Shown piece after piece: positions 12,702 to 15,245 of a stretch of 64,000 bases of DNA. Both the position numbers and the translations under genes were made by a program. Position 1 is the first letter of the stretch, and each line of letters begins with the position of its first letter. The notes beneath the pieces were generated by a model. The model was given only the letters and a program-made list of their open reading frames with translations. It was not told where the DNA came from and did not search any database. Source of the stretch: Actinomycetota bacterium (GTDB taxonomy: Bacteria > Actinomycetota > Acidimicrobiia > Spongiisociales > UBA5794); the NCBI GenBank assembly GCA_013151445.1, contig JAADIG010000137.1:18424-82423 (forward strand), given 5' to 3'.

Positions 12702-13259
12702 ATGATGTCCGAAGTAACCCGAGACTCAGTCGACACTGCACACCGCATCGCAGATGAGCTGTTCAGCGTCTACCCGACGGAGTTCGGTGCGGCGAGGGCC
12801 GCTTATCACGGTCATGTGCACAGGGGCATCGATCTTGTCGCCCACCAGATGGATCTTGACGAAGCGACCGGGAAGCTGTTGGGGGTGGCGGGCTTTTTTC
12901 ACGATGCGGGGATCTGGCTCGACAACACCTTCGACTATTTAGGTCCGTCGATCCGGCGGGCTCTTGATCATCTGCATGACGTCGATGCGGGGGGTGAAGA
13001 TCTGGTGCGGCTGGTTATCTTTGAGCACCATCGGTTGCGGAGGGCGAGGTCCGAGCATCCGCTCGTGGAAGCGTTTCGGCGTGCCGATCTCACGGACCTC
13101 ACCGGCGGCCTTGTTCCGAGTCCCGGGGTGTCGTTTCGGGAGTATCGGCAGATCGGTGGGCGGTACCCGTCTCATGGGTTCCGTTGGAGGCTCACGGTGA
13201 TCTTTTTGCGGTGGACGCTGCGGCACCCGCTGCGACCGCTCCCCATGATGAAGTGGTAA
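12702..13259 (+). CDS. HD-domain phosphohydrolase-like protein
   Basis: H...HD...HH...D pattern: YHGHVHR, FHDAGIW, EHH, FRRAD. Confidence 0.7.
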   Translation: MMSEVTRDSVDTAHRIADELFSVYPTEFGAARAAYHGHVHRGIDLVAHQMDLDEATGKLLGVAGFFHDAGIWLDNTFDYLGPSIRRALDHLHDVDAGGEDLVRLVIFEHHRLRRARSEHPLVEAFRRADLTDLTGGLVPSPGVSFREYRQIGGRYPSHGFRWRLTVIFLRWTLRHPLRPLPMMKW

Positions 13260-13407: not shown

Positions 13408-13439
13408 TTGACATTCCTGTTGACTGGAATGTGTACGGT
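13408..13439 (+). promoter_or_regulatory. MerR-family-type promoter/operator
   Basis: TTGACA (13408-13413), 20-nt spacer, TACGGT (13434-13439); dyad ACATTCCTGT-TG-ACTGGAATGT (13411-13432, 9/10 symmetric) between the hexamers. Confidence 0.72.
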
Positions 13440-13481
13440 GGCTGCGTGTAGCCAGATGAAACGTTCGGGAGCATCGAAACG

Positions 13482-13673
13482 ATGGAGCATGCAGGAATAG
13501 CAGTACAGGCGGAGCGCCCCCGCGGGCGTCCCGCAAAGAGGTTCATGCCGGGGAGAATCTGTATCGAACCGGAGTGTGTGACCCTCCTCAGTACGTACAA
13601 TCCGAACGATATGTGTTTCCGGCACAGTCCGATCCGTTTCCCGCGGACCCGTGGTCGGGTGGATGTAGAGTGA
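13482..13673 (+). CDS. 63-aa protein with C-x4-C-x12-C-x2-H putative metal-binding motif
   Basis: GRICIEPECVTLLSTYNPNDMCFRH; GGGAG RBS upstream; stop overlaps the next start (GTGA 13670-13673). Confidence 0.7.
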   Translation: MEHAGIAVQAERPRGRPAKRFMPGRICIEPECVTLLSTYNPNDMCFRHSPIRFPRTRGRVDVE

Positions 13674-14596
13674 CTGATTTCTTGACGGCCGTCACGGCGA
13701 TGCGAGGCGATGAGACTCGCTCGGATCATGATCATCCACGTTCGGCAGCTACCAAAACGAAACGCCGACCGGTACGTGGCTCGTTGGATGAATTGCACAC
13801 ATCGACGGTCGGCGGCCAGATTCGGCAGGGGCAGACGCCGTTCATATTCCTGCACGGGCTTGGCGGGACCCAGGTGTACTGGACCGCAGCCGACAGTGAC
13901 AGGTACCTGCCGCCACAGTCGACTCTCGTCGATCTTCTCGGGTTTGGCCAGTCACCCAGACCGTTCAAGAAGTACACCCTCGACACGCATCTCGCCGCAC
14001 TGGAGGCGGCGTTGGCTGGGCAACCTCCAGCGATCCTTGTCGGGCATTCCCTCGGGGCCGCTCTCGCATTGGCCTATGCCGTGCGCAATCCCGAGAGTGT
14101 GAAGGGACTGGTGCTGATCAGCCTCCCGTCGTACGGCGGCACCCAGGGGGCGATCCGTTGGCATCGACGACGGCTCAGCGGCTGGTTTCTCACCAACATG
14201 GTGCTTACTGGCCTGGCGTGTGTGACATCACGTCGACTGTTGGGGCCTCTGCTTCCCTTGATACTGCGCGACATACCCCGCGAGGTGGCTCGTGACCTTG
14301 TCGAACACAACGTCATGTCGTCGACTACGTCGCTGTGGAATGTGTTGTATCGCCGTGATGCGGTCGACGACCTCGATGCGCTCGCTCCCGACCTTCCGGT
14401 TACGTTCATCCACGGGACCAAGGACGGCACCGCTCCGATCGACTCGATTCGTGCCGTCACCGACGGGTACGAGAATCGGAAGCTGATCGAACTCGAAGGA
14501 GTTGACCACCACCCCTGGTTGCGAGCCCCCGGCGCATGCGCTGCGGCCATCGCCGACGCCGGGCGCGCCATTCAGACAGCACCACCAAAAGCATGA
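13670..14596 (+). CDS. Alpha/beta-fold hydrolase
   Basis: HGLGG, DLLGFGQS, nucleophile GHSLG, HGTKD, DHHPW; start set at the GTG overlapping the upstream stop. Confidence 0.88.
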   Translation: MTDFLTAVTAMRGDETRSDHDHPRSAATKTKRRPVRGSLDELHTSTVGGQIRQGQTPFIFLHGLGGTQVYWTAADSDRYLPPQSTLVDLLGFGQSPRPFKKYTLDTHLAALEAALAGQPPAILVGHSLGAALALAYAVRNPESVKGLVLISLPSYGGTQGAIRWHRRRLSGWFLTNMVLTGLACVTSRRLLGPLLPLILRDIPREVARDLVEHNVMSSTTSLWNVLYRRDAVDDLDALAPDLPVTFIHGTKDGTAPIDSIRAVTDGYENRKLIELEGVDHHPWLRAPGACAAAIADAGRAIQTAPPKA

Positions 14597-14627: not shown

Positions 14628-15245
14628 CTACTCGGGTGGGCGGAACCCGATCGCCGCACGCTCGGTTCGTGATCTCTTGAGTTCCCAGAAACCCGGTGTG
14701 GACCCCGCGGCGTGAACGCCATCCCACAAGCGCAGGGCTGCATCGATTTCGAGTTCGCGAGAAATCACCGGTCCGAAGATGGCGACCGGTTCGCCCTCAG
14801 CGTCATCAAATCCGATGATTGGTGTTCCGACGTCTTCACCGGTCAGTGCAAGAGCTTCGGCCATGCTTGCCGAGATCGTGTCGTCCCACGAAACATCGTC
14901 GGCCGCGAGCGCAAACTTACTGTCCAGACCGACGGCATCGAGGGCTTGCGCGGGATCGAAGTCGATATCCTGACCGAGGTGGATATGGCGGCCGTACTCG
15001 GTGTAGAGGTCACCGATGACCGCATCGCCCTTTTCGGAGCGAACGGCCTCAAGGACTCGCAGAAGCCGATGACTCTTGGTGTAGATGCCGGTGAAGGGGT
15101 GGTCCGGGTTATCAACGTTTTTCATCTTGAGACTGATTGACCGCCATCGAACGTCCAGGTCGCGGTGCGGTGCCACGTTGACGATCCAGCGCGATGTCAT
15201 CCAGCACCATGGACAGATCGGGTCGAGCCAATAGTTCACTCTCAC
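14628..15245 (-). CDS. DsbA-like thioredoxin-fold protein, Rv2466c (mycothiol-dependent reductase) family
   Basis: DPICPWCWMTSRW, GEDVGTPII, FGPVIS, FWELKR; RBS AGGAG. Confidence 0.88.
   Translation of the reverse strand: MRVNYWLDPICPWCWMTSRWIVNVAPHRDLDVRWRSISLKMKNVDNPDHPFTGIYTKSHRLLRVLEAVRSEKGDAVIGDLYTEYGRHIHLGQDIDFDPAQALDAVGLDSKFALAADDVSWDDTISASMAEALALTGEDVGTPIIGFDDAEGEPVAIFGPVISRELEIDAALRLWDGVHAAGSTPGFWELKRSRTERAAIGFRPPE

Follow-up and report, generated by a model that had tools for sequence, protein, structure and literature searches.

The 64,000-nucleotide (nt) stretch of DNA analyzed here, called the window throughout, comes from an Actinomycetota bacterium of the class Acidimicrobiia (GenBank assembly GCA_013151445.1, contig JAADIG010000137.1, positions 18,424 to 82,423 of the forward strand; genome G000, contig C1 in our numbering). 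Its plus strand carries in succession a promoter-like sequence (13408-13439), a gene for a 63-amino-acid (aa) protein with a Cys3His pattern (the CCCH mini-protein; open reading frame (ORF) at 13482..13673, ATG start), and a gene for an alpha/beta-fold serine hydrolase (13670..14596). MerR-type metal switches are textbook examples of gene control, and most of the targets described for them, in Proteobacteria and Firmicutes, are pumps, chaperones, or reductases. An initial annotation of the window had proposed that a promoter of this type drives the two genes in place of a metal pump and is controlled in trans, and both of the ORFs that it named as targets, a 63-aa Cys/His protein and an alpha/beta hydrolase, are present.

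The promoter elements can be read directly from the sequence. A -35 hexamer TTGACA (13408..13413) and a -10 hexamer TACGGT (13434..13439), which conforms to TAnnnT, are separated on the plus strand by a spacer of 20 nt (13414..13433). A pattern search placed a perfect 22-base-pair (bp) dyad, ACATTCC-N8-GGAATGT, at 13411..13432 (7+8+7, no mismatches, not assigned to either strand), which begins within the -35 hexamer and otherwise lies inside the spacer. Re-reading thus upheld the hexamer, the 20-nt spacer, and the dyad starting from within the -35 that had been described earlier. Promoter geometry predicts a transcription start at 13444..13448 on the plus strand, approximately 7 nt past the -10, and a Shine-Dalgarno-like GGGAG follows at 13467..13471 on the same strand, 10 nt 5' of the mini-protein ATG.

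A 22-bp dyad set within a 20-bp spacer is the arrangement reported for ZntR in PMC1526738, and the ZntR-type geometry assigned by the initial annotation agrees with it. A standard promoter scan and a terminator scan returned nothing at the site. The blank promoter scan is expected because it covers spacers of 16 to 18 nt, and the dyad is not a terminator because no run of T residues accompanies it. By every sequence-level criterion of the class, 13408-13439 is a MerR-class promoter: the spacer falls within the 19 to 20 bp of such promoters instead of approximately 17 bp, a palindrome in the spacer overlaps the -35, and the genome encodes a cognate MerR-family regulator with metal-binding cysteines.

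Conservation of the promoter and a shared operator

Orthologs of the mini-protein with 57-86% identity occur in four related genomes (G002, G018, G029, and G040). When 190 nt around the five start codons were aligned, the sole invariant block was CTTGACATTCC.G..GACT.GAA.G..TA...T, accompanied by the GGAG of the Shine-Dalgarno element, and the flanking sequences had diverged. All five promoters retain the 20-nt spacing.

The motif was also sought across 41 related genomes. Here and in all other counts on relatives, genes were called by ORF and GC3 filter, with a Pfam check on 74 ORFs only. Two unpublished genomes, G027 and G038, enter the counts for the mini-protein family, the 41-genome motif search, and the regulator orthologs, and they also supply two rows of the tree, as well as two of the five loci linked to rsrA that are mentioned below; no central claim depends on either. 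The pattern TTGACATTCCNNNNGACTNGAAGG gave 85 matches with three or fewer mismatches in 31 of the 41 genomes, compared with six for a reversed control, and as many as 13 such matches were present in one genome. With one mismatch or none, 33 sites remained, distributed over 11 genomes.

For 31 sites with at most two mismatches and available flanking sequence, TA occupies positions 27-28, exactly 20 nt after the -35, in every case, although these positions lie outside the searched pattern. T is present at position 32 in 21 of them. Positions 1-5 of the -35 are likewise invariant in all 31 sites, partly by construction of the pattern, and in most sites the four free positions at the center are AGTC, which makes a palindrome with GACT. 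The resulting consensus is the 22-bp palindrome ACATTCCAGTCGACTGGAAGGT within TTGACA-N20-TAnnnT, of which the window dyad is a local form.

A scan of one genome per species recovered 72 exact sites in 71 stretches of DNA. The records that contain them are mostly titled Acidimicrobiia, Acidimicrobiales, or Acidimicrobiaceae, with a few in Chloroflexota, Armatimonadetes, Gemmatimonadota, and other Actinomycetota. Within a neighborhood of 400 nt around each site, a divergent MerR gene is found at 24 of the 72. The downstream 400 nt contain P-type ATPases (18 sites), CCCH proteins (8), SHOCT proteins (4), YHS proteins (4), MerR proteins (3), SPW proteins (2), and a cyclopropane-fatty-acid-synthase-like (CMAS) protein (1), with nothing recognized at 29. 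Exact copies outside the Actinomycetota lie at L143, L102, L162, L165, L170, L107, L154, and L167 in records titled Chloroflexota (including a complete Ktedonobacteria genome), Armatimonadetes, and Gemmatimonadota, and in three cases a MerR gene lies directly downstream of the copy. These copies could reflect horizontal spread or mis-binning.

On comparative grounds, the motif is the operator of a regulon. It is extremely unlikely that the window site is a promoter-like sequence that arose by chance and has no function. Such a view can point to the dyad alone, which with up to two mismatches finds at least one match in 28 of 100 shuffled windows and is therefore weak evidence in a single window. 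When the -35, the dyad arms, and TAnnnT are combined into one pattern, defined after the site had been seen, this matches once in the window and in none of 100 shuffles even when one mismatch is allowed. A chance origin is contradicted moreover by conservation across genera, by the excess of the regulon-wide motif over its controls, and by the link to a regulator gene that is described below.

A candidate regulator encoded in trans and its regulon

The search for MerR regulators and similar sites that the initial annotation had suggested yielded 11 MerR_1 matches and at least five promoters of the same geometry in G000. None of the 11 matches is on contig C1, so the earlier statement that the window lacks a merR gene is correct. 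One of them, a 153-aa protein encoded on another contig (C106, 1920-2381), comprises MerR_1, MerR, and MerR-DNA-bind domains, a full dimerization helix, and a cysteine loop. Three cysteines, Cys77 and the pair of the loop (C120-x5-C126), are invariant in 11 of 11 orthologs, most of which end in a His-rich tail.

Orthologs of this regulator with at least 49% identity are present in 14 of the 41 genomes, and their distribution follows that of the operator. Ten of the 11 genomes with a site of one mismatch or none carry an ortholog. In the eleventh, G031 (contig C29; L052 and L088), the ortholog adjoining a perfect operator matches in two pieces that lie in different frames, owing either to a frameshift or to faulty assembly. 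No site of this quality occurs in the remaining 26 genomes. Of the 14 genomes that carry the regulator, 10 have an operator adjoining its gene, either divergent and at most 81 nt away (eight genomes: G005, G017, G018, G026, G028, G029, G035, and G040) or approximately 150 nt downstream (G004 and G034). Comparative genomics thus establishes, at the level of sequence, a linkage between regulator and operator, and the trans control proposed earlier acquires a candidate metal-type MerR protein.

The five sites in G000 precede genes of several kinds. Besides the mini-protein and hydrolase genes, the operator lies upstream of genes for an SPW-repeat membrane protein (contig C18), a CMAS/CfaB-like methyltransferase (C36), a HesB/IscA-like protein whose family match is below the cut-off (C47), and a CopA-type P1B-1 ATPase followed by a cupredoxin-like protein (C97). 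Upstream of the regulator gene itself, the opposite strand reads TTTACC, 20 nt containing TTCC...GGAG, and TAGAAT. This operator-like region faces a gene for an 83-aa SHOCT protein, divergent from the regulator, which we propose as a further arm of the regulon. In relatives, the same operator precedes many ATPases. A lack of similar dyads before metal-resistance genes was among the findings that would have counted against the initial annotation; a copper-type P1B ATPase gene follows the operator in G000. The parts of its interpretation open to testing all held, with one revision: the operon is not controlled instead of a metal pump but belongs, as an additional member, to a regulon that includes pumps as well.

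In two relatives, five operator copies are clustered within 14-23 kb (G029:C64:174219-188487 and G040:C45:79333-102546). There, they precede respiratory genes (NuoA, Rieske, and cytochrome b), a BlaI-like repressor with an M48 peptidase, an ABC-2 transporter, and FAD oxidoreductases, a regulon far broader than those of CueR, ZntR, and CadR surveyed in PMC1526738. P1B ATPases under the operator at L077 (6990-9317), L080 (3494-5818), and L085 (259-2586) have TCPD instead of CPC or CPH and an HMA-like N-terminus devoid of cysteine; in G029 and G040, ATPases of this type are cotranscribed with a GAPDH-like gene.

Taken as a whole, we consider it reasonably probable that the window holds a MerR-class promoter switched in trans by the C106 metal sensor and that its operon is one arm of a regulon sharing a single operator. 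The consensus -35 and the TAnnnT -10, set 20 bp apart, would be too distant from each other and out of phase for RNA polymerase. We infer that a dimer of the 153-aa sensor binds the 22-bp dyad in the spacer. By analogy with solved MerR-family members, the metal-free dimer would hold the promoter closed, and the metal-bound dimer would underwind and kink the spacer and thereby bring the -35 and -10 into line. Transcription would then begin near 13446, and the transcript would encode the CCCH mini-protein and a translationally coupled serine alpha/beta hydrolase.

Alternatively, a conventional repressor, or a MerR protein that can only repress, might act at the dyad, and the promoter would fire in the absence of untwisting because the -35 matters little to actinobacterial RNA polymerase. 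PMC1526738 does note MerR-type sites that are only repressible or derepressible. Nevertheless, we find this very unlikely: all 31 sites retain a perfect TTGACA and a distance of exactly 20 nt to TA, neither of which would be under constraint if the -35 were irrelevant. In addition, the regulator encoded next to the operator belongs to the MerR family and has the full dimerization helix and cysteine loop noted above.

The inducing metal and comparison with known systems

The most likely inducer is Cu(I), an assignment that we make with moderate confidence. The ATPase encoded on contig C97 scores 600.2 bits against the copper P1B subfamily model of NCBIfam (TIGR01511; cut-off 397), with CopA as its best match, and exhibits the motifs CPC, YN(x)4P, and M(x)2SS. 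Relatives carry ATPases with CPH and MSxST motifs and His-rich N-termini. Both motif sets are those of copper-type ATPases. CopZ-like HMA proteins, YHS domains, and cupredoxins accompany the ATPases of the regulon. In addition, the half-sites of the operator agree with the HmrR/CueR signal ACCTTCCAG...CTGGAAGG given in PMC1526738.

Several observations weigh against this assignment, or against the broader account of the site as one arm of the regulon. The regulator passes no NCBIfam equivalog cut-off. Its best family score is with CadR-PbrR (TIGR02047; 103.3 bits, cut-off 151.45), followed by 89.1 bits with CueR (TIGR02044; cut-off 147.4), and its closest solved structure is CadR. In an alignment to 1q05, Cys77 occupies the position of a serine in CueR, and PMC11672702 states that this serine excludes divalent ions. 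The regulator also lacks a cysteine at the position of CueR C112, with C120 retained and an extra cysteine at 126. A CsoR-family gene resides beside another P1B ATPase gene in the genome, so copper may already have a sensor there. The genome also encodes a second metal-type MerR protein, of 141 aa (G000:C27:17469-17894; L095:3469-3894, minus strand), with a Cys77-like residue and C-V-C-H residues, which scores 92 bits with the CueR model, below the cut-off. No TTCC/GGAA operator was found upstream of its gene, and for this reason we do not assign it to the regulon, to which it might still belong. Finally, the window site differs from the consensus at three positions, and in G005 approximately 310 nt, including a run of N, separate the site from the CCCH gene downstream.

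A rival reading retains the mechanism of promoter and regulator but replaces Cu(I) as the effector by a divalent thiophilic metal (Cd, Pb, Zn, or Hg) or by soft metals in a broad range. Cys77 aligns with C77 of CadR and C79 of Bacillus MerR, unlike the serine of CueR, and CadR-PbrR and CadR are the best matches among families and solved structures, respectively. The three invariant cysteines would fit a tri-thiolate site, and the His-rich tails of most orthologs, the ZntR geometry of a 22-bp palindrome in a 20-bp spacer (PMC1526738), the CsoR-type system in the same genome, and the CPD motif of unclear specificity in some regulon ATPases may be counted on the same side. An effector of either kind is nonetheless unlikely in our judgment. 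By the motif rules above, every ATPase amenable to typing is of a copper type, the one in G000 exceeds the copper subfamily cut-off, and CopZ-like, YHS, and cupredoxin partners are present. None of the sites examined has a P1B-2-type signature, and the half-sites resemble those of CueR and HmrR rather than those of CadR or ZntR.

Among the closest known systems are the CueR and HmrR copper regulons of Proteobacteria. [quoted passage not shown] The targets shared with these systems include copper P1B ATPases and, in some genomes, cytochromes c, and the regulator gene may be either divergent from its target or unlinked to it. The half-sites also match the CueR operator ACCTTCC...GGAAGGT, but the spacer here is 20 bp rather than 19 bp, the palindrome is 22 bp, and its center is one base longer. 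The regulator departs from CueR in having cysteine for serine at the alpha5 position and C120-x5-C126 in place of C112-x7-C120, as well as in scoring below the CueR cut-off. The regulon is also much larger, with genes for the CCCH mini-protein, the hydrolase, and CMAS, SPW, and SHOCT proteins.

ZntR and the zntA promoter have in common with the present system the palindrome and spacer lengths and, in the consensus, the central GTCGAC core (PMC1526738). Their outer half-site bases are TCTGG rather than ATTCC. The regulator here has C-x5-C and lacks the CCx3Hx4C loop described in PMC11672702, its scores with the ZntR models (76-87 bits) are below their cut-offs (143-168 bits), and the targets are copper-type pumps. 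The Cd/Pb sensors CadR and PbrR share Cys77 and, in many orthologs, the His-rich C-terminal tail, in addition to being the best matches in profile and structure comparisons. They differ in that their cut-off is not reached, no cysteine is present at the position of CadR C112, and the half-sites are of the CueR/HmrR kind. According to PMC11672702, CsoR of Mycobacterium tuberculosis brings about the induction of a Cu(I) P1B ATPase and so has the same role in physiology, yet its fold and mechanism are unrelated, with derepression in CsoR as opposed to the activation by untwisting proposed here.

By curated cut-offs and by its ligand pattern, the regulator is outside CueR, ZntR, CadR-PbrR, and MerR proper. 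It would represent a distinct MerR subfamily, mainly of Acidimicrobiia, that is marked by Cys77 and C-x5-C and that combines CueR/HmrR-like half-sites with a ZntR-like 20-bp geometry. Literature searches on MerR, CueR, and CsoR copper regulation in Acidimicrobiia and Actinobacteria, and on cyclopropane or SPW links, retrieved no description of the regulon. Its breadth is unusual in that it includes respiratory genes, lipid-modifying enzymes, and an uncharacterized Cys3His family of approximately 2000 clusters with no Pfam entry. A natural operator and sensor pair with a 20-bp spacer is also an addition for biosensor work. A search for sequencing runs that contain this stretch of DNA listed none from RNA; DNA runs with most of it are labeled as hydrothermal-vent metagenomes, a habitat in which metal stress is plausible.

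The hydrolase, the CCCH mini-protein, and neighboring genes

The hydrolase gene begins either at GTG 13670, where a GTGA overlaps the mini-protein stop codon, or at ATG 13700; the longest ORF extends from 13574. The corresponding overlap in G002 is ATGA. The protein exceeds the gathering scores of PF00561 and PF12697 (Abhydrolase_1, 71.2 bits; Abhydrolase_6, 67.1 bits) and possesses a Ser-Asp-His triad, Ser126 (in GHSLGA), Asp251, and His279/His280, that is invariant in five of five orthologs. No close solved relative was found. The next gene, on the minus strand at 14628-15245, encodes a protein resembling the mycothiol-dependent nitroreductase Rv2466c and DsbA; it is convergent with the hydrolase gene, and the operon is thus limited to two genes. 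G002 carries this gene as well. Just upstream of the promoter, a plus-strand ORF of 185 aa (12702-13259) belongs to no Pfam family, is found in the same place in G002, and has no operator before it.

A hydrolase gene follows the mini-protein gene in seven of the 11 genomes examined (G000, G002, G018, G029, G040, G041, and G044) and is absent behind it in the other four, which have the same promoter (G005, G042, G043, and G045). Because the mini-protein thus occurs apart from the hydrolase, we make no claim that the two proteins bind each other. A CMAS gene follows the hydrolase gene in G029, where the two overlap by 4 nt, and in G040; in G000, G002, and G018, it is under its own copy of the promoter. 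This linkage of the CMAS gene to the hydrolase gene or to the same promoter leads us to suggest that the hydrolase and the methyltransferase may remodel membrane lipids under metal stress.

The mini-protein family is defined by the invariant residues C27, C32, C45, H48, Y39, N40, P50, P54, R55, R57, and G58. No Pfam, NCBIfam, or ESM Atlas match gives it a name, and it matches no named zinc-finger or zinc-ribbon family among curated profiles or solved folds. A profile search of the PDB returned only the RAR1 CHORD domain (E=1.2), and a structure search gave no match with Z>=2 among 48,161 chains. The AlphaFold model has a pLDDT of 77.7, reaching approximately 90 only over residues 21-50, and contains no helices or strands. 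We suppose that the protein could form a structural Zn (or Cu) knuckle whose basic arms bind nucleic acid or protein.

The family occurs in 40 of the 41 relatives, usually in 2-4 copies per genome, and is seen mainly in Acidimicrobiia. It numbers 1994 cluster representatives at E<=0.001; the 120 matches listed have no Pfam domain, and wherever a source names one of them, the name is 'hypothetical protein'. In a tree of 30 best-hit rows, the six promoter-linked CCCH proteins, of which that from G005 is the sixth, form one clade with support of 99/96. Six further genomes from the species-representative scan have a CCCH gene approximately 35-45 nt after the -10. For a family of this kind, the promoter offers a handle, as it points to a condition under which induction can be attempted and to a regulator that can be cloned.

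A possible but doubtful extension is that the CCCH mini-proteins are undescribed small metal-knuckle stress factors, with each paralog connected to its own thiol-stress circuit, namely a sigH-rsrA operon (thiol-oxidative stress), the MerR metal promoter, and a MerR-copZ-copA locus. The Cys3His site would then be the working part, a metal- or redox-sensitive switch governing whether the basic arms bind nucleic acid or a partner. Were this to hold, the MerR regulon would reach past efflux into gene regulation and membrane-lipid remodeling.

Other CCCH paralogs are found in several settings. The second paralog of G000, of 69 aa (G000:C19:16939-17148; L099:240-449, minus strand), directly follows genes for a SigH_actino sigma factor, which is over its cut-off, and an RsrA-like anti-sigma factor, which is below its own (54 bits, cut-off 62.5). 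The order sigH-rsrA-CCCH recurs in five of the 30 best-hit loci (G016, G027, G032, G034, and G038). Paralogs at L027, L029, and L036, and also at L035 and L037, have the palindrome TTTAGTACTAAA or a variant of it 30-110 nt before their start codons, which suggests a third regulator for the family. At L022 (G037:C1:456973-460122) and L028 (G026:C98:11160-14297), a CCCH paralog of another clade adjoins a gene for a MerR regulator that is 46-49% identical to the C106 protein, followed by genes for a CopZ-like HMA protein and a CopA-type ATPase. In G037, the palindrome CCTTCTAGCCAGCTAGAAGG precedes the regulator gene at the L022 locus.

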